A stretch of DNA of 64,000 nucleotides from NCBI GenBank assembly GCA_049513975.1, contig JBEKVM010000004.1, forward strand, positions 46,311 through 110,310. The letters run 5' to 3'. Below are positions 1 to 7,059 of this stretch, piece after piece. How positions within the stretch are numbered: position 1 is the stretch's first letter; every line of letters begins with the position of its first letter. The notes under the pieces are model-generated. The model saw nothing but the letters and a program-made list of their open reading frames with translations, was not told the DNA's origin and made no database searches. This DNA is from Verrucomicrobiota bacterium (GTDB taxonomy: Bacteria; Verrucomicrobiota; Verrucomicrobiia; Limisphaerales; Palsa-1400). Made by a program: the position numbers and the translations under genes.

Positions 1-160
1 CGCCCGCATTGGCATTGATCGCATTCATTTCAGGGGAACAAGCCCTCACTCACAAATAAAATAGATGACTCGGCAAACCAAGCAAGCTTCGGTGGTGGCC
101 GGGGCGGAGGGTGTGAGACAAAATTTTTCCTTGAATGCCAAGTCAGTGGAAAAGCTCGAC

Positions 161-192
161 CTCACCCCTGCCCTCTCCTCCAGGAGAGGGTG
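161..192. repeat. REP-like palindrome, CCCTCTCC...GGAGAGGG family
   Basis: Stem CCCTCTCCT (171-179) / AGGAGAGGG (182-190); related copies at 13466-13490 and about 43396-43440. Confidence 0.7.
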
Positions 193-364
193 AAACATCG
201 GCCGCGCCCGCGAAAGGCCAGCGCCGGGATTTGCCGGACGAGCATGCGCCCAGGCCGAGGCGGGCAGGCCAAGGCGGGCCGGTGCGGAATTCAACCGGTA
301 ACCGCCCGCGCCCGCATTGGCATTGATCGTATTCATGTTCCGGCCGGCGGCCGGCCATTGGGCA

Positions 365-2602
365 TCAGAATTGATAACTGAGCGTGCCGAAGAGGCCGCG
401 GCGCATGCCGTATTGAGCGGCATTGACGCCAACGCCCGTTGCGCTGCGCAACTGATAAATGTTGTCGGTCACGTTGACGATATCAAGGCGGACTTTCAAG
501 AACTGCTTGTGGGCGACTTTGAAAGTTTGTTCCGCGCCGAGGTTGATCTCGTAATAGTCCGGAACGGTTGCCCCGTTGGGAATGGGGCCGGCTCCGTCGG
601 CCGCGGGTTCGAGGCCGCCGCCGCTCTGCCGCAATCCACTGCCGGTGACGAGGTCCAGATAGGTCAGAGTGCTGGCTTCATGGGACTCTCTGAAACGATA
701 AGACACGCCGGCCGTGGCGGTATATCTCTGGTCGTGGTCCAGATAAATCCAATGGTTCTGGACATAGGCGAGATCGCCCGGAGAGAAGAGAAACTGGGCA
801 GAGTCCCAATTTTGACCCTGGGCGTAGGAGTAGGCGAGGTTGGCGTAAACGGAAAAGTCGTTGGTCTGGTAGGAGGTGGTCAGTTCCAGGCCATAGACGC
901 GGCCTTTTTCATAGTTGAAGGCGGAGAGAATGAGGGTCTGTCCAAAGAGTCCGTCATCCAGTTGTTGCTGGGCGGTCTTGTAGTAACCGTCCAGGCCCAC
1001 AGTCCATCCGGGAAGGATGGTTTGGTTGATGCCAACGTCGTAGTAGTTGGCGCGCTCGGCCTTGACGGGACTGTCGAGGGTGACCGCGGAGGCGCCGGAG
1101 GTGCCGGTGAACAAGCTCAAGGCGCCGGAGCTGACAGCCTCGACGGGCGGCGGGGTGAAGTAGCGCGAGTAACCGGCGTGGAGGGTGGTGCCGTCGAAGG
1201 GTTGGTAAACGAGGTTGACGCGCGGACTGAGTTGATTTTCGGCGTCAAAAGAAGAGGAGTAAACATCGAAGCGCGCGCCGTAATTGAGGGTGAGCGTGGA
1301 GGCGATTTTCCATTCGTCCTGCAAATACGCGCCCATAAACAAGCCGTAGAGGGGATAGTTGTCCGAGATGTTTCTCAGGGGGGTGGCTGCAGGATTGCCG
1401 GCGGCCATGTTGAAGACGGTGGTGGAGGTGTTGTTTTGATCGCCTGTGGCCAGAAACGACCCGCCCGTCCGAAGGGTATGGGAATTGCCCCATTGATAAC
1501 TGGAGTCGGCTTGCAAGCCGGCGGAGTAGAGGGTGCGATGCACTTGGCTGGCCTCGCCGTTGAGAAAGAGGTCGCCGATCGGGTCGGGCGTGAAATGCTG
1601 TTCGCTTTCGCGGCCAAAAGCGGAGACTTGAAAATCCAAATCACCGGCGGATTTTTGATAAGTGAGGACCGTGTAATAATTCTCTTCGTTTTGATTTTCG
1701 TTGTCGTTGGCCGAATTGAAAGAGCCGGTGTATCCCGGAACATTGGCCGGAGTCATGGCGGAAGACCAGGCAGCGCCCCCCGGAGCCGTGCCCGAGGCAA
1801 CGCCGGGGGTGTTGGGCACCTGGAAGTCGCTGTAGGACGCGCTGCCCATCATGGTGAGGCGGCTGGAGGGGTCAATGACGTAAGACCCGTAGAGGAAGGT
1901 CTTGAACTGCTCGGTTTCATCATGAATCGCCGTGGAAGCGGAGGTGGGATTTTCCACGCCCAAATCATTGTGGTCGTAGCTGCCGTCCACGAAATAATTG
2001 AATTTGCCCGCCGAGCCGCCGTATTCAAAACTGGGGCGGAAGGTGTCGTAACTGCCGCCATAGAGGGAGATTTCGCCGCCGGGATTGAGGGCGCCATTCT
2101 TGGATTGAATATCCACCACGCCCGCGGTGCGGAAGCCGTATTGGGCGGGGAGCGAGCCGGTGATGAGTTTGATGCTCTGGATGAAGCGCGGGTCCAGTTC
2201 CAGGCCAAAGCCGGCGATGCCTTCGGGCAGGAGCACGCCGTCAATGCGGTATTGCAGGTTGGCGTGCTCGCCGCGCACATGCAAATCCCCGTTTTCCGCC
2301 GAATCCTGCGCCACGCCGGGAAAGCGGGTGATGACTTGATTGACCGGCGCGTTGGCCCCCTGGGCAATGGCCTGGATTTGCACGTCGTCCTTTAGAGAAA
2401 CGGTGGCCCCCAGACTGGGCATGATCTGAGTGGCGATGGCCTGATTCAAATGCCCCACCACGGTGGTCGTCCCGAGGGCGGTGACGTTGGTTGCGCCGGC
2501 GGCGGCGGCCGGCGGATTGTTGGTCTGACCCCAGGCTCCCGGGCCGGCCACCGCCGCCAGCCCAATAGCTGTCAATTGCAAATAACGATAAACTGAATTC
2601 AT
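365..2602 (-). CDS. TonB-dependent receptor
   Basis: Signal peptide; plug-like segment GVAQDS..GDLHVRGEHANLQYRIDGV; QDEWK and LSPRVNL barrel motifs; ends in terminal aromatic residue (LSYQF). ATG 2602 preferred over TTG 2611. Confidence 0.92.
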   Translation of the reverse strand: MNSVYRYLQLTAIGLAAVAGPGAWGQTNNPPAAAAGATNVTALGTTTVVGHLNQAIATQIMPSLGATVSLKDDVQIQAIAQGANAPVNQVITRFPGVAQDSAENGDLHVRGEHANLQYRIDGVLLPEGIAGFGLELDPRFIQSIKLITGSLPAQYGFRTAGVVDIQSKNGALNPGGEISLYGGSYDTFRPSFEYGGSAGKFNYFVDGSYDHNDLGVENPTSASTAIHDETEQFKTFLYGSYVIDPSSRLTMMGSASYSDFQVPNTPGVASGTAPGGAAWSSAMTPANVPGYTGSFNSANDNENQNEENYYTVLTYQKSAGDLDFQVSAFGRESEQHFTPDPIGDLFLNGEASQVHRTLYSAGLQADSSYQWGNSHTLRTGGSFLATGDQNNTSTTVFNMAAGNPAATPLRNISDNYPLYGLFMGAYLQDEWKIASTLTLNYGARFDVYSSSFDAENQLSPRVNLVYQPFDGTTLHAGYSRYFTPPPVEAVSSGALSLFTGTSGASAVTLDSPVKAERANYYDVGINQTILPGWTVGLDGYYKTAQQQLDDGLFGQTLILSAFNYEKGRVYGLELTTSYQTNDFSVYANLAYSYAQGQNWDSAQFLFSPGDLAYVQNHWIYLDHDQRYTATAGVSYRFRESHEASTLTYLDLVTGSGLRQSGGGLEPAADGAGPIPNGATVPDYYEINLGAEQTFKVAHKQFLKVRLDIVNVTDNIYQLRSATGVGVNAAQYGMRRGLFGTLSYQF

Positions 2603-2725
2603 AAATTTCAAACAAAATGGTTAAAGTTTTTGGGATTTCCCGCCCGAGTCCCTGTCAAGCAGGGTCTGCGCCAATGGCAGAGCACCGCGAGCAGGACCCA
2701 CTAATAATTGAAACCGGCGAACGAA

Positions 2726-3058
2726 CTAACTGGGGAGGGAGAGGAGAGAGGGAGGACCGCGGACCGGGAGCAAGCGGACATCGGTGGAAACAAAAGCGGC
2801 CTCGCGCCGGGACTGGATGAAAAGGGCGAGCGGTTGGGGCCGGACCACGGGAAGCGCCGGCTCCGGGCAGTGAACCTGGCCGTGGGCGAACAGGGTGACG
2901 GCGCATTGGTGGCCTGGCTCCGACGCGTCGGAATGGAACAGGAGATGCAGGCCGGGGAGAACGACCATGGCCTGAAGGAGGAGGAAGACAGCGAGCCACA
3001 AGGCCGCGTGGCCCCGCCTCGCCTTCCGTGAAAAGACCCATGAAAGCGCCTGCTTCAC
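2726..3058 (-). CDS. DUF2946/CruR-like leader protein ending in RGPP
   Basis: Hydrophobic segment, His/Cys motif (HLLFH..GHQCAVTLFAHGQVHC), C-terminal RGPP, directly upstream of the TonB receptor on the same strand; start codon uncertain (GTG 3058). Confidence 0.7.
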   Translation of the reverse strand: MKQALSWVFSRKARRGHAALWLAVFLLLQAMVVLPGLHLLFHSDASEPGHQCAVTLFAHGQVHCPEPALPVVRPQPLALFIQSRREAAFVSTDVRLLPVRGPPSLLSLPS

Positions 3059-3161
3059 GGAGGTGATAATACGTATGAAAAACTTTGATGCAAGAATATT
3101 TTCAACGGGCCATATTCCAGAGGTTGACCAATGCTGAATTCGGTTGTTTAATGGCCGTGTT

Positions 3162-3722
3162 GTGAGCACAAACCATATCCACTATTCGGAAGAAAAACTC
3201 CAGCAGGTGATCCTGTATTTTCTGGAGCGCATCAACAATGTGCATCTGGGACGGACCAAGCTGATGAAATTGCTCTATTTCGTGGATTTTGACCACCAGG
3301 AAGCATACGGGCATTCTGTCACCGGGGCGACCTATCGCAAATTGCCGCACGGACCTTACCCGGACAGAATCGAGAAGCTTATCAAGAAAATGGAAACGGC
3401 GCGCTTGGTGCGGGAGGTGAAGGTGGAGCACAAAGGCTTTACCCAAACCCGCCTTCTCACCCTCGGCGCCAAGTTCAATCCCGCGAAATTCTCCGGGGCG
3501 GAACTCCAGACCCTGGAACGTGTAGCCGCCGCCTGGGCGGACGCGACCGCAGCGCAAATCGAAGCCGCCACCCACCGCGAAGCGCCTTGGGCCGGCACCG
3601 CGGACGGCAAGACGATTGATTATGAAATGGCTGAATACCGCCGGGCCATCGGGTTTGAACCGCTGGACGACTCCCTCGCGCGCTCCCGCAAATTCGCGGA
3701 TTACGTTGCCGCTCTGGCCTAA
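3162..3722 (+). CDS. Panacea (DUF4065/SocA-like) antitoxin
   Basis: KLQQVILYF, TKLMKLLYFVDF, YRKLPHGPYP and THREAPW motifs; GTG 3162 or TTG 3144 start. Confidence 0.85.
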   Translation: MSTNHIHYSEEKLQQVILYFLERINNVHLGRTKLMKLLYFVDFDHQEAYGHSVTGATYRKLPHGPYPDRIEKLIKKMETARLVREVKVEHKGFTQTRLLTLGAKFNPAKFSGAELQTLERVAAAWADATAAQIEAATHREAPWAGTADGKTIDYEMAEYRRAIGFEPLDDSLARSRKFADYVAALA

Positions 3723-3730
3723 AACCCGGC

Positions 3731-4117
3731 ATGGGATCTTTCACCGTCATCCGCACCCCGGCGTTTGACCTGCTGGCCGGAGACTATGCGCGCGACCATT
3801 CCAAGCTGGAAGCGGATCTGGCCTGGTTGACGGGGCGATTGGCTCAAGCACCCGAGCAAATGGGTGATCATGTGCCGGAGCTTGGCCGGCTGGCCCTCCC
3901 CATTTTCAAAACCCGCTGTAAAGATTCCTGCCACCGAATCGGCGCCTCTGGCGCCTGGCGGATTTACTACGCGTTGAACAAACCGGCCGAAAAAGTGTTT
4001 TTGTTGTTTCTCCACCACAAAAAGGAATACGAAAACCCGGGCGCCAAGTTCCTCCTGCAAAAAATGGAACGCGCATTCATCTCGGCGGCGAAACCCAGGC
4101 CGAAACACGGGGCATAG
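3731..4117 (+). CDS. RelE/ParE-fold toxin (putative)
   Basis: 128 aa; IFKTRC..GASGAWRIYY..VFLLFLHHKKE resembles the RelE/HigB K.R...G.SGG.R.IY motif; starts 8 bp after the antitoxin. Confidence 0.65.
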   Translation: MGSFTVIRTPAFDLLAGDYARDHSKLEADLAWLTGRLAQAPEQMGDHVPELGRLALPIFKTRCKDSCHRIGASGAWRIYYALNKPAEKVFLLFLHHKKEYENPGAKFLLQKMERAFISAAKPRPKHGA

Positions 4118-4362
4118 GCATTCGCCTCATGTGGCCATGGTCCGGCAGAAGCGCTGAGGACAGCCGCCAGCCTGAGGGTCGGCGAAGGAAAGTGAGTTGG
4201 TCACGAAGGAGTTGACGATAGTGGCTGGTTGACGAGAACGCTCACCTGCTTTTGGCAATTCTTCGCCTTAAATAGCACAGGGTTTTCGGATAAATCGTCA
4301 CCCATTTTCACTTTTTCATTCCCTGTTCTCCCAGGACTGTGCCATAATGTCCCGCGATAAAA

Positions 4363-5589
4363 ATGGCGTCGAAATCGAGTTTTCTGGACAAGGTGCTGGG
4401 CCGCATCGGGCGGCTCGATAAGGAAGGGCTGCAAACGGTCGTGCAACGGCTGGCGCGGGAGCGCCATTTCCTGGAGACGCTGTTCAATGCCATCGAGGAC
4501 GGCGTGCTGGTGCTCGATGAGCAGGGGCGCGTCATTTATTTCAACCACGCCGTGACGCAACTGCTCAATTGGCGGCCCGAGGAGGTGGAGGGCCGGCCGA
4601 TCACCGAATTTCTGCCAGAAGTGGATTGGAAAAGCATCACGGCCCGGACGGCGGAAGGGGGGCCGCGGGTGGCCCGGCACGAGTTTGAGGTGAGCTATCC
4701 GCGCCCGAAGTTTCTGCGGCTTTACGCGGCGCCGCTGGACGGGGAAGCGCGCGGCGGATCGGGCACGGCGCTGATTTTGCACGACGCCACCGAGGCGCGG
4801 CAAAAGACGTTTGAAGCCATTGAAAGCGAACGGATTCATTCGCTGACGCTGCTGGCGGCGAGCGTGGCCCACGAAATCGGCAATCCGCTCAACGCCCTGC
4901 ACATTCATCTGCAATTGATGAGCCGCGAAGTCAAAAAGCTGCGGCCTGCCGCCGGCGCGGCCCCGGCGCGCGGCCTGTCCCGCGCCAGCGTGACGGCGGA
5001 GGGGGACGCCGCCGAGGCGGCGGAGAAGATCGAGCATTATCTGGACGTGGCCAAAGGGGAGATCACGCGGCTGGATTACATCGTCACGCAGTTTCTCCAA
5101 GCCATCCGCCCGTCGGCGCCCAGATTATCGGACGCATCGCTCAACGAGGTGGTGCGGGAGACGCTGGAGTTGCTGCGGCCGGAACTGGAAAATCGCCGGC
5201 TGAATGTGAAGGAGAAGCCGGCCCGCCGGCTGGCGCCCGCGCCGCTGGATGCCAGCCAGATCAAACAAGCGCTGGTCAACCTGATGAAAAATGCCATGCA
5301 GGCCATGGCCCCCGGCGGCACGCTGACGGTGGAAACGGGGCAGAACACGGAAGAGGTGTGGGTGAGCGTGGCCGACACCGGGGGAGGCATTGCGCCGGAT
5401 CAAGTCAATCTGATCTTTGAGCCGTTTTACACGACCAAGAAAAAGGGAACGGGGCTGGGCTTGATGATCGTGCAGCGCATCGTGCGGCAGCACGGGGGGC
5501 ATATCGAACTGGAGAGCCGGGTCGGCCAGGGGACGACTTTCCGCATCTGGCTGCCGCGGCGGGAGAAGCAGCAAAAGCTGCTGCGATGA
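4363..5589 (+). CDS. Cytoplasmic PAS-domain sensor histidine kinase
   Basis: PAS (FNAIEDGVLVLD), H-box VAHEIGNPL, N-box NLMKNA, DTGGGI, FYTTK and GTGLGL; no clear TM segment. Confidence 0.93.
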   Translation: MASKSSFLDKVLGRIGRLDKEGLQTVVQRLARERHFLETLFNAIEDGVLVLDEQGRVIYFNHAVTQLLNWRPEEVEGRPITEFLPEVDWKSITARTAEGGPRVARHEFEVSYPRPKFLRLYAAPLDGEARGGSGTALILHDATEARQKTFEAIESERIHSLTLLAASVAHEIGNPLNALHIHLQLMSREVKKLRPAAGAAPARGLSRASVTAEGDAAEAAEKIEHYLDVAKGEITRLDYIVTQFLQAIRPSAPRLSDASLNEVVRETLELLRPELENRRLNVKEKPARRLAPAPLDASQIKQALVNLMKNAMQAMAPGGTLTVETGQNTEEVWVSVADTGGGIAPDQVNLIFEPFYTTKKKGTGLGLMIVQRIVRQHGGHIELESRVGQGTTFRIWLPRREKQQKLLR

Positions 5590-5643
5590 GATTATACGCT
5601 TGAAAGAATTGGACACCGAAAAGAAAACCGAACAGAGTCACGG

Positions 5644-5661
5644 CTCGACGGAGTCTCGCCC
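5644..5661. repeat. REP-like unit, CTCGACGGAGTCTCGCCC family
   Basis: Copies at 5644-5661 (+), 18952-18969 (-), 31492-31509 (-), 31831-31848 (+), partial at about 23702-23715. Confidence 0.75.
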
Positions 5662-5667
5662 CACCGA

Positions 5668-7059
5668 ATGGGAGCACCCTTGAACACTGAAATTGAAAGC
5701 AAACCGCGGCTGCTGATCGTGGACGACGAGAAGCCGACCCGGGAGGGCCTGCGGGCGGCGCTGGAGGGCCATTACGAGGTGTGGGCGGCGGAGGACGCCA
5801 AAGGGGCCATGACGCTGCTGGAGGAGGAAAACTTCCAGGTGTTGCTGACGGATTTTCGCCTGCCGCAGGAGGACGGGATGAAGTTGATCCTGCGGGCCAA
5901 ATCGCTGGACCGGCCGCCGGTTTGCATTTTGATGACGGCTTATGGGTCGGAGGAATTGGCCGTCCAAGCCATGAAAGAGGGTGCGGACGACTACATCGCC
6001 AAGGGGCGGTTGCAGATAGACGAGCTGGAAATGCGCATCGGGCGCGCCTTGCGGCAGCAAAAACTGGAAGTGGAAAACGCGGCGCTGCGCCAGCAACTCA
6101 GCAGCAAGTTCGGCCTGGAAAACATCGTGGCCGAGTCGCCCGCGATGAAAGAGGCGGTGGAGATGGTGCGGCAAGTCGCCCCCACGCGGGCCAGCGTGCT
6201 GCTCCTGGGGGAAAGCGGCACGGGCAAGGAACTGGTGGCCCGGGCCATCCATCAACTCAGCCCGCGGGCCGCCCACCCGATGGTGAGCGTGCATTGCGCG
6301 GCGCTGTCGCCCACGCTATTGGAAAGCGAGCTGTTCGGGCACGAGAAAGGGGCGTTCACCGGGGCGCACGAGAAGCGGATCGGGCGCTTCGAGCAGGCGC
6401 AGGGGGGAACGTTGTTTTTGGATGAGATCGGGGAGATTGACGCATCGGTGCAGGTCAAGCTGCTGCGCTTTCTGGGGGAACGCACCTTCGAGCGGGTCGG
6501 CTCCAACAAGACGTTGAGCGCGGACGTGCGGCTGATCGCCGCCACCAACAAGAACCTGGAGGAGGAAGTCAAGACTGGAAAATTCCGGGAGGACCTCTAT
6601 TTCCGGCTGCGGGTGGTGGAGATCACGCTGCCGCCGTTGCGCCAGCGGGCGGAAGACATCCCGCTGCTGGCCAAGACGTTTTTGCGGGAATTCGCCGCGG
6701 AGAACAGTAAAAAAGTGAACGATTTCACCCCGGATGCCCTCGAAGCCCTGATGAACCATGCCTGGCCCGGCAATGTGCGCGAATTGCGCACCGCCGTCGA
6801 ACACGCCGTGGTCCTGACGCGCGGGGAGCGGATCAGCCTGCGCGATTTGCCCGCGCCGTTGCGGGCGGGCGGCGCGGCGGCCGGACCGGCCCGCTGGCTG
6901 GCCCAACCGGACCTGACGGTGGCGGAAGCGGAGAAACAATTGATCGCCCGCGCCCTCAAGGATGGCGGCGGCAACCGCACGGTGGCCGCCCAAAAACTGG
7001 GGATGAGCCGGCGCACGCTGCACCGCAAACTCCACTTTTACCATTTGGAGGGATTTTGA
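5668..7059 (+). CDS. Sigma-54-dependent response regulator (NtrC/AtoC family)
   Basis: Receiver domain, GESGTGKE, GAFTGA, LFLDEIG, WPGNVREL, C-terminal Fis-type HTH. Confidence 0.96.
   Translation: MGAPLNTEIESKPRLLIVDDEKPTREGLRAALEGHYEVWAAEDAKGAMTLLEEENFQVLLTDFRLPQEDGMKLILRAKSLDRPPVCILMTAYGSEELAVQAMKEGADDYIAKGRLQIDELEMRIGRALRQQKLEVENAALRQQLSSKFGLENIVAESPAMKEAVEMVRQVAPTRASVLLLGESGTGKELVARAIHQLSPRAAHPMVSVHCAALSPTLLESELFGHEKGAFTGAHEKRIGRFEQAQGGTLFLDEIGEIDASVQVKLLRFLGERTFERVGSNKTLSADVRLIAATNKNLEEEVKTGKFREDLYFRLRVVEITLPPLRQRAEDIPLLAKTFLREFAAENSKKVNDFTPDALEALMNHAWPGNVRELRTAVEHAVVLTRGERISLRDLPAPLRAGGAAAGPARWLAQPDLTVAEAEKQLIARALKDGGGNRTVAAQKLGMSRRTLHRKLHFYHLEGF

Follow-up and report, generated by a model that had tools for sequence, protein, structure and literature searches.

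A small open reading frame (ORF) for a membrane protein of 110 residues stands before the gene of a TonB-dependent receptor in a Verrucomicrobiota bacterium (assembly GCA_049513975.1). The locus lies at one end of a stretch of 64,000 nucleotides (nt) of contig JBEKVM010000004.1 (positions 46,311 to 110,310), which was analyzed as a whole and is called the window here; positions are those of the window unless the contig is named. This ORF, referred to below as the leader, is a conserved, real gene. It encodes a His/Cys motif kept at a fixed distance from an RGPP motif near the C-terminus, is remotely homologous to the DUF2946 family, and heads an operon. The leader is probably a cis-acting ribosome-arresting peptide that controls the genes for the TonB receptor, TonB, ExbB and two ExbD proteins. 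RAPP/RGPP arrest leaders before TonB receptors have been known since 2022 (PMC9426467) and were catalogued in 2025 (PMC12992588).

The leader is read on the minus strand from GTG at 3058 to TAG at 2728..2726, and its product reads VKQALSWVFSRKARRGH-AALWLAVFLLLQAMVVLPGL-HLLFHSDASEPGHQCAVTLFAHGQVHC...VRLLPVRGPPSLLSLPS. Among 5.8 billion proteins searched, 37 relatives align with this product from end to end, and a six-frame search of 41 related genomes matched the leader in 38 of them at E ≤ 1 (about 30 at E ≤ 1e-4). By an exhaustive profile search of 1.84 billion representatives, the family comprises 2189 clusters at E ≤ 1e-3 and 741 at E ≤ 1e-10. Library scans found no Pfam or NCBIfam family for the leader protein. 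Among the family matches listed, none has a Pfam domain and "hypothetical protein" is the sole name, and the top 120 matches of an annotated profile search, in which DUF2946-labelled relatives were sought, are all unannotated. P0166, an apparent member of 1126 residues with 13 short matches, was excluded as repetitive and unrelated.

In an AlphaFold2 (AF2) model the protein begins with a helix over residues 2–33, the top block-mean confidence (predicted local distance difference test, pLDDT) being 88–92 over residues 11–30. This part contains the transmembrane (TM) segment, for which an N-in/C-out topology is predicted from the positive-inside rule. The helix is followed by the candidate metal-binding motif. 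In an alignment of 32 sequences, H38, H42, D44, H50, C52, A53, V54, L56, G60, R100, P102 and P103 are invariant and H59 is at least 90% conserved; among 149 sequences, H50, C52 and P103 are invariant, and H38, H42, D44, T55, G60, R100 and P102 are at least 90% conserved. An initial annotation of this DNA had reported a small ORF with a TM segment and a His/Cys cluster at this place. The ORF and its N-terminal helix are found there, and the named cluster elements HLLFH, GHQC and HGQVHC correspond to residues 38–42, 49–52 and 59–64, with the correction that H63 and C64 are restricted to the leader's own clade and are not conserved in the family. Beyond the motif the sequence varies and the length is fixed: Cys and the Arg of the arrest motif are 47 residues apart in 112 and 48 in 18 of the 132 members scored. 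The pLDDT is below 50 over residues 75–99.

The motif R-[AGDS]-PP occurs in 175 of 184 members (92 RAPP, 79 RGPP, three RDPP and one RSPP), with two to seven residues following it, and R-[AG]-PP is invariant in the 32-sequence alignment. This count, together with the finding that a TonB receptor follows all 16 leaders of the window's own clade, answers in the affirmative a test set beforehand, namely whether RGPP is conserved upstream of orthologous receptors. The motif had been described as C-terminal; it is present but not terminal, since the seven residues SLLSLPS follow it. The codons of the motif vary synonymously among loci (cgc ggt cct ccc; cgc gcg ccg ccg; cgg gca cca cca), and selection therefore acts on the peptide. 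Among the long ORFs of this genome, RGPP occurs at 0.39 and RAPP at 0.32 times the expected frequency, in agreement with the published proteome-wide avoidance of both motifs (PMC12992588). Both have been experimentally demonstrated to arrest the ribosome, RGPP being the strongest RAPP-like motif in the assays, and it is overrepresented among small exported proteins encoded before TonB receptors (PMC12992588). The leader has the architecture of this class of arrest peptides, that is, a small membrane protein with R-[AG]-P-P near its C-terminus and a co-oriented downstream gene. Ribosome arrest at its RGPP is likely. In L062, L065, L067 and L052, and in P0136, P0165 and P0181 (Opitutia/Chthoniobacteraceae), the Arg of the arrest motif is replaced (CGPP, QAPP or HAPP) and the His/Cys motif and the spacing are kept; these variants may be weakened or differently tuned arrest sites.

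If the ribosome were held with P102 in the P-site, C52 would lie 50 residues and the end of the TM helix 66 residues from the peptidyl-transferase center. In this geometry the helix should already be inserted, and the His/Cys motif should just be emerging from the tunnel or translocon. The fixed length of the spacer may be understood from this position, because a motif at the tunnel exit could pull on or relax the nascent chain upon folding or ligand binding. Another reading takes the ORF for a functional small membrane metal-binding protein, an accessory subunit or chaperone like CbtB, with RGPP as a structural element or a simple pause site without regulation. CbtB is a His-rich protein with one TM helix predicted to assist cobalt transport. 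Its model (PF09489) weakly matches 11 of 149 family members (best E 0.0013), and a motif directly after the TM helix would suit a metal site at the membrane surface. However, no CbtB match was obtained for the window protein or for 10 further members. A C-terminal half that is variable and disordered, yet fixed in length and ending in an arrest motif avoided in the proteome, is hard to explain for a mature protein. Moreover, the leader is in every case the first gene, with a long or structured spacer behind it. A CbtB-like role is highly improbable.

The relation of the leader to known arrest peptides is best seen from CruR. CruR (Bp2923 of Bordetella pertussis; DUF2946/PF11162) has an N-terminal export signal, a CxxC motif and a C-terminal RAPP, and is encoded upstream of BfrG (Roy et al., 2022, PMC9426467). 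The distance between CxxC and RAPP is 45 residues (± 1–2) and is needed for function; copper sensing by the nascent chain relieves the stall at RAPP, upon which Rho terminates transcription before the receptor gene bfrG (PMC9426467). The arrest has been toeprinted, with the two Pro codons in the P- and A-sites (PMC12992588).

Direct membership of the leader in DUF2946 was rejected at the level of the profile hidden Markov model (HMM), as PF11162 gave no match to the window protein at E ≤ 1 in the Pfam scan and so stays below the gathering threshold. It weakly matches 11 of 149 family members (best E 0.037), and in a six-frame search of the 41 related genomes it touches one family locus only (E 0.6). 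An intermediate is provided by a verrucomicrobial ORF, L021, which scored exactly at the PF11162 cut-off in the scan of related genomes. L021 reads ...RHRQLHADD-GHGHGH-DADGT-CAVC-LLIAGG...(48 aa)...RGPP, precedes a TonB receptor, and has 16 close relatives of which two carry a precomputed PF11162 label. When the leader family was aligned with the L021 clade by hhalign, homology was found at 96.6% probability (E 6.9e-10). The aligned part spans 92 columns, the spacer being free of gaps; LHxxxHxD is paired with HRQLHAD, C52-A-V-T55 with C-A-V-C, and RGPP with RGPP. From position 55, the equivalent of the second Cys, to the Arg there are 44–45 residues, as compared with 45 in CruR. Homology to DUF2946 is shown in this way through the verrucomicrobial L021 clade as an intermediate, not through the canonical proteobacterial members.

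A CxxC motif is absent, the corresponding residues being C52-A-V-T55, of which C52 is invariant and position 55 is Thr in at least 90% of the 149 sequences. The other marks of DUF2946 leaders are present: a near-C-terminal RAPP-like motif, fixed spacing, an N-terminal TM segment, detectable homology, and a position as first gene of an operon with a long spacer. Judged by its sequences, the leader family is most aptly called a divergent branch of the DUF2946 (CruR/CutF) kind, rich in histidine and with one conserved cysteine, because it has C-A-V-T where the clade at the DUF2946 threshold has C-A-V-C. The link to CruR and DUF2946 that had been proposed thus holds as remote homology by hhalign but not as a match of the DUF2946 HMM to the window protein. 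The accompanying idea of His ligands in place of CxxC was roughly right, in that the family retains the first Cys, has Thr for the second, and adds H38, H42, D44, H50 and H59 as near-invariant residues.

The gene following the leader encodes a TonB-dependent receptor, as had been proposed, with Plug and barrel domains recognized by Pfam. The spacer, given earlier as roughly 120 nt, measures 114 nt to TTG at 2611 and 123 nt to ATG at 2602; the latter is taken as the receptor start because close relatives use it. After the receptor, on the same strand, genes for a TonB-like protein, ExbB, two ExbD and a coiled-coil protein were identified by eye from their translations, and the operon is a complete TonB uptake system headed by the small ORF. 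No sequence relative of the receptor was found among solved structures, so that its substrate is not inferable from them. Immediately behind the receptor stop codon lies a second copy of at least the opening 28 nt of the TonB-like gene (ATGAATGCGATCAATGCCAATGCGGGCG...), 308 nt upstream of the gene's own start and 96% identical to it (window 1–28 and 309–336 on the minus strand, with 46–336 between). The upstream copy opens a frame of 97 codons (MNTINANAGAGGYRLNS...) and then diverges, and a REP-like palindrome lies between the copies at about 158–192. This interval between receptor and tonB looks like a partial duplication or insertion.

Upstream of the leader, a recurring layout was recognized by eye in about 16 of 18 related loci, the flanks being different in other respects: a TTGCAT-like box, 16–18 nt, TAnnnT, 7–9 nt, and the start codon, with no Shine–Dalgarno sequence. 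A generic promoter scan of 2400–3400 found no sigma-70 promoter; TTGCAT went unflagged because it matches TTGACA at only three of six positions. From this layout, the leader mRNA is therefore expected to be leaderless or nearly so, with the transcription start placed accordingly. The conserved promoter directly upstream confirms the small ORF as the first cistron. Divergent from this promoter, at 3144–4117 on the plus strand, a SocA/Panacea-domain protein (Pfam 6.4e-17) is encoded, and 8 nt later follows an ORF of 128 residues without a Pfam match; the two are likely a toxin–antitoxin pair. The features of the locus are collected in Table 1.

Table 1. Positions of the features at the leader locus and the basis of each assignment (window numbering, except for the last row)
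Feature	Position	Strand	Basis
TTGCAT box, -35-like, leader promoter	3088..3093	-	by eye; about 16 of 18 related loci have TTGCAT or a one-base variant some 30-36 nt ahead of the start codon
TATTAT, -10-like, 16 nt after TTGCAT and 7 nt before GTG	3066..3071	-	sequence reading
Leader ORF	2726..3058	-	110 aa, GTG start, TAG stop; full-length homologues share the start position, many with ATG
TM helix, residues about 17-36, after the basic stretch SRKARRGH	2951..3010	-	AF2 helix 2-33, conserved hydrophobic run
Candidate metal-binding motif, H38-x3-H42-x-D44 ... H50-x-C52-A-V-T55-L-F-x-H59	2882..2947	-	residue conservation; aligns with CAVC of the clade at the DUF2946 threshold
Spacer within the peptide, residues 60-99, variable sequence, fixed length	2762..2881	-	predicted disordered
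RGPP arrest motif, R100 G101 P102 P103, codons cgc ggt cct ccc	2750..2761	-	conservation and published arrest motif
C/U-rich tail of seven codons (SLLSLPS) and stop, candidate rut site	2726..2749	-	center of the C>G tract
Long imperfect stem-loop, containing both hairpins of the initial annotation	2640..2720	-	RNAalifold consensus
A/U-rich unstructured stretch before the receptor start, no Shine-Dalgarno	2603..2639	-	sequence; conserved in close relatives
TonB-dependent receptor, 745 aa from ATG 2602 (748 aa from TTG 2611)	365..2602	-	Pfam TonB_dep_Rec_b-barrel 1.3e-29, Plug 4.8e-5
Start of the next operon gene, TonB-like, ATG at 28	1..28	-	runs off the window; read on the contig
Operon genes on contig C4	45619-46359, 44963-45589, 44538-44966, 44107-44541, 43553-44107	same as receptor	read and translated, identities by eye

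A survey of 41 genome loci, 11 metagenome loci and 20 loci from relatives, with downstream genes assigned by Pfam and NCBIfam scans, gave three types of gene following the leader. About 28 loci have a TonB receptor. At 12 loci the leader is followed by an unannotated outer-membrane protein of about 480 residues and then by a ZnuA/AztC-type binding protein, an ATP-binding cassette (ABC) ATPase and an ABC-3 permease; at 8 loci, by a NodT-type outer-membrane channel and then by a CzcB/NccB-type adaptor and a CusA/CzcA-type heavy-metal pump of the resistance-nodulation-division (RND) class. In all three types the first downstream gene encodes an outer-membrane protein. The window copy belongs in the leader tree to the clade of 16 in which all members precede a receptor, and its sister clade of 24, with RAPP, mixes the three contexts. 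This genome itself contains a second copy of the leader family on another contig (C116:99-509, plus strand; HHRLHRH...HPCAVTML...TRGPPFRLG*), followed up to about 3900 by genes that were identified by eye as encoding an outer-membrane protein, a ZnuA-like protein and an ABC-3 permease. On contig JAKALA010000038.1, two near-identical leaders lie 4.8 kb apart, one (L060) before a Znu-type and the other (L059) before a Czc-type operon. As the first heads an importer (outer-membrane protein, ZnuA and ABC proteins) and the second an exporter (NodT, CzcB and CzcA), they form a natural pair for control of import and export by one peptide.

The outer-membrane protein of about 480 residues recurs in L034, L038, L040, L044, L049, L053, L056, L057, L060, L063 and C116. 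It has a signal peptide and an N-terminal coiled coil (QLRQMQE...), matches no Pfam or NCBIfam model, and always stands between the leader and the ZnuA/AztC-type ABC importer; it is a candidate for a zinc-specific porin. In another set of records (L036, L042, L043, L048 and L056, binchicken assemblies labelled "uncultured Bifidobacteriaceae"), leaders occur beside TonB receptors and NodT/Czc genes. The label of these metagenome-assembled genomes looks wrong, because the leader family is almost solely verrucomicrobial and the neighbors are genes of Gram-negative envelopes.

Dependence of the stall on metal appears probable, somewhat less firmly than the arrest itself. A ligand of the zinc class is suggested rather than copper, because the conserved residues are a His/Cys/Asp set and the neighbors of sister leaders are of Znu and Czc type, and zinc or a similar divalent metal is tentatively proposed. 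The earlier suggestion that the leader may sense a metal different from that of CruR obtains indirect support from the ZnuA/AztC importers and CusA/CzcA exporters behind sister leaders. The same neighbors bear on the possibility that the leader monitors membrane insertion, secretion or envelope assembly by sensing force, as SecM, MifM, VemP and ApdA do, with insertion of the TM helix releasing the stall and without any metal sensor. RAPP-type arrest peptides were in fact first discovered as monitors of Sec and YidC (PMC10987492, PMC12992588), the TM helix of the leader is conserved, and an outer-membrane protein (receptor, NodT channel or the 480-residue protein) is directly downstream in all three operon types. 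On the other hand, the near-invariant His, Cys and Asp residues are typical metal ligands and not generic insertion signals, and the operons encode metal transporters (ZnuA/AztC, CzcB, CusA/CzcA) instead of Sec or YidC components. Furthermore, the TM helix ends 66 residues before the stall site and should by then have been inserted. Such a monitor is very unlikely.

How a stall would be converted into expression of the receptor is suggested by the base composition of the transcript. The C/G ratio exceeds 1.5 over most of the leader and is below 1 in the spacer and the receptor gene. Its maximum in the transcript, 2.3–2.5 with 29–30 YC dimers per 78-nt segment, lies over 2800..2711 and is centered on the RGPP codons and the CUCUCCUCUCCCUCCCC tail. 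Family-wide, C peaks at 0 to +29 nt from the Arg codon (C 0.47, G 0.23). In the minimum free energy (MFE) fold, the C-rich tract over the stall site is unpaired. This tract of the window locus resembles the "C>G bubble" that has been mapped as the rut region in cruR (PMC9426467). A generic terminator scan of 2400–3400 found no terminator in the spacer, and no U-tract follows the stem-loop there; a terminator-like match on the minus strand at 3061..3037 overlaps the leader start and was disregarded. No Rfam riboswitch or leader RNA was found in the leader or spacer when window 1–6000 was scanned with cmscan at E ≤ 1, the lone match being a sub-threshold whalefall-1 (18.9 bits) at 158–192, on the palindrome between receptor and tonB. 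Rho-dependent attenuation, in which the ribosome stalled at RGPP masks a rut site, is favored because the stall tract is C-rich, G-poor and unpaired, no intrinsic terminator is present, and the genome has a rho gene; the choice is a tentative one.

Remodelling of the spacer RNA is an alternative output, though an unlikely one. In this case the same arrest leader would act by melting, as in CutF and SecM, or by hairpin blocking, as in pyrBI, on translation initiation or intrinsic termination rather than through Rho, and the polarity might be reversed, metal inducing the stall. It is supported by the Znu- and Czc-type loci, where a GC-rich hairpin of 6–10 bp begins 1–9 nt after the leader stop codon and is followed by a U-rich stretch in 16 of 18 loci (mean z −3.4 against shuffles); to disrupt it, a ribosome would have to get as far as the stop codon. 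From locus to locus the stem sequences change but pairing is kept (CCGGUCAGC/GCUGAUCGG, UCCGGCC/GGGCUGGA, GCUGCGACUC/GAGUUGCGGU). RNAalifold gave no consensus for 19 such hairpins because their stems are in different registers, and each sequence was instead folded separately against shuffles. The 5' arm of such a hairpin would lie under a ribosome at the stop codon but be free when the ribosome stalls at RAPP, about 30 nt upstream. Behind the second copy in this genome, too, 13 nt from its stop codon, stands a hairpin that resembles a terminator (GGCCGGC...GCCGGCC TGTTTTTCT).

In favor of remodelling at the window locus, a stem-loop of 80 nt begins 6 nt after the stop codon. In an RNAalifold consensus with six relatives it has 24 pairs, four of them with compensatory changes, and a covariation term near zero; the spacer is 90–200 nt long in this clade. 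The two hairpins proposed in the initial annotation both exist, the first pairing GGGTCCTGC (2699..2691) with GCAGACCC (2669..2662) and the second CCCTG (2664..2660) with CAGGG (2654..2650), but they cannot form together because they share C2664–2662, and the spacer folds no better than its shuffles (z −0.9 for the intergenic region, +1.1 for 201 nt). Two further pairings were rejected as switches. The MFE fold has a long-range helix that joins GGUUUCAA, immediately behind the leader stop, to UUGAAAUU, immediately ahead of the receptor AUG; L028 and L071 have not kept this helix, which speaks against remodelling as well. Pairing of the C/U-rich tail with the receptor start was ruled out, the start region being A/U-rich and the tail unpaired. 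Remodelling is also opposed by the lack of a U-tract after the window stem-loop, by a receptor start region that is A/U-rich and unpaired in the consensus, and by the distance of about 38 nt from the stall site down to the first stem, which is more than a stalled ribosome can span. As an account of the whole system, an arrest leader with such an output is rather unlikely.

With Rho as the favored output, the following course of events is proposed. Transcription from the TTGCAT/TATTAT promoter would give a leaderless mRNA, and the N-terminal helix of the nascent leader would insert N-in/C-out, so that the H38/H42/D44/H50/C52/H59 motif comes to lie directly beyond the membrane. Peptide-bond formation would stall once RGPP has been reached, P102 then being in the P-site and P103 in the A-site. 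At this stall, the fixed spacer of 47 residues would set the distance of the metal motif from the peptidyl-transferase center, roughly at the exit of the tunnel or translocon, and metal occupancy of the nascent motif would set the duration of the stall. The stalled ribosome, sitting on the most C-rich, G-poor and unpaired part of the transcript, would most likely hide the loading site of Rho, so that transcription reads through into the receptor gene. If metal is sufficient, the stall would be released, the ribosome would terminate, and Rho would load and end transcription in the spacer.

Several observations weigh against this reading. PF11162 does not match the leader, and the canonical CxxC is missing. 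The receptor has no recognizable metal-binding cluster, a scan of its sequence having found no cysteine, no His cluster and no Met cluster. The C-richness of the stall tract is partly forced by the Pro/Ser/Leu/Ala composition of the peptide, and the spacer stem-loop has weak comparative support and an unexceptional stability. The Znu and Czc loci have a different output element, the hairpin and U-tract abutting the stop codon, and the output step is therefore not simply transferable to the window locus. Finally, near-identical leaders of the RAPP sister clade precede importers and exporters alike, so that one fixed logic in which metal releases the stall cannot hold family-wide. Two DUF2946 leaders differ in this respect: copper releases CruR, which shuts down an importer (PMC9426467), whereas it stalls CutF, which switches on a detoxifying enzyme (PMC9973294; bioRxiv 10.1101/2025.02.05.636593). 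One kind of leader for import and export is less paradoxical because CruR and CutF have these opposite polarities. In its widest form, the proposal is that the family is a nascent-chain sensor of the zinc class (Zn/Co/Cd) in Verrucomicrobiota, which would replace or accompany regulators of the Zur and CzcRS type. It would work from leaderless mRNAs and through two RNA modules, a hairpin with U-tract at the stop codon or a long Rho-type spacer, and would switch importers (TonB receptors, porin-ZnuABC) and exporters (CzcCBA) oppositely. This wide form is doubtful.

Like that of CruR, the leader gene is small and opens its operon, and its product begins with an export or TM signal. The two further share a Cys motif at a fixed distance from R-A/G-P-P, a disordered C-terminal half, a C-rich and G-poor leader region, and a long spacer before a TonB-dependent receptor. 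Unlike CruR, the leader matches no Pfam model, has C-A-V-T for CxxC and the additional H38, H42, D44, H50 and H59, carries its arrest motif 7 instead of 3 residues from the end, is apparently translated from a leaderless mRNA, and is found in Verrucomicrobiota rather than Proteobacteria. The contexts of its family point to zinc-type transport and not to copper. For CruR, the copper response, Rho dependence and arrest have been demonstrated, whereas arrest and Rho dependence of the leader are predictions. CutF of Rhodobacter capsulatus, a DUF2946 protein encoded upstream of cutO, demonstrates that such leaders can switch detoxification genes on (PMC9973294; bioRxiv 10.1101/2025.02.05.636593), which is the polarity required for the Czc-type operons headed by sister leaders. 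In CutF, the stall is brought about by copper and acts by melting a stem-loop over the ribosome binding site, whereas the window locus has neither a Shine–Dalgarno sequence nor a shielding stem at the receptor start, and the ligand motif differs.

ApdA, ApdP and ApcA and the products of the small ORFs with RAPP/RGPP catalogued in 2025 before TonB- and copper-related genes are likewise small TM or secreted proteins with R-[AG]-P-P near the C-terminus and a co-oriented downstream gene (PMC10987492, PMC12992588). In that catalogue, "TonB-related" downstream genes are an enriched class across Gram-negative phyla; its main text does not mention zinc or efflux, a His/Cys family with a fixed ruler of 47 residues is not described, and its verrucomicrobial members, if any, are not characterized (PMC12992588). 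The DUF2946 protein CC2720 of Caulobacter crescentus is encoded directly upstream of the RND efflux operon czrCBA, as are eight sister leaders of exporter operons, unlike the window leader, which precedes a receptor; CC2720 appears solely in a regulon table (PMC4176598).

Up to now, work on arrest leaders that sense metals has concerned two copper systems, CruR and CutF, and the 2025 catalogue showed small ORFs with RAPP/RGPP to be common before TonB receptors. The present family adds a very large branch outside Pfam with a changed ligand motif (one Cys, several His and one Asp) and a retained ruler, and it brings Znu and Czc contexts, two output designs and a leaderless arrangement. The fixed spacer of 47 residues makes the geometry of sensing directly testable. 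If the proposed reading is true, sensing of metals by nascent chains would reach beyond copper, and the family would offer a natural test case in which one sensor peptide drives opposite polarities via different downstream RNA elements. Thousands of small verrucomicrobial genes now called "hypothetical" would then receive an annotation and a predicted regulatory role.

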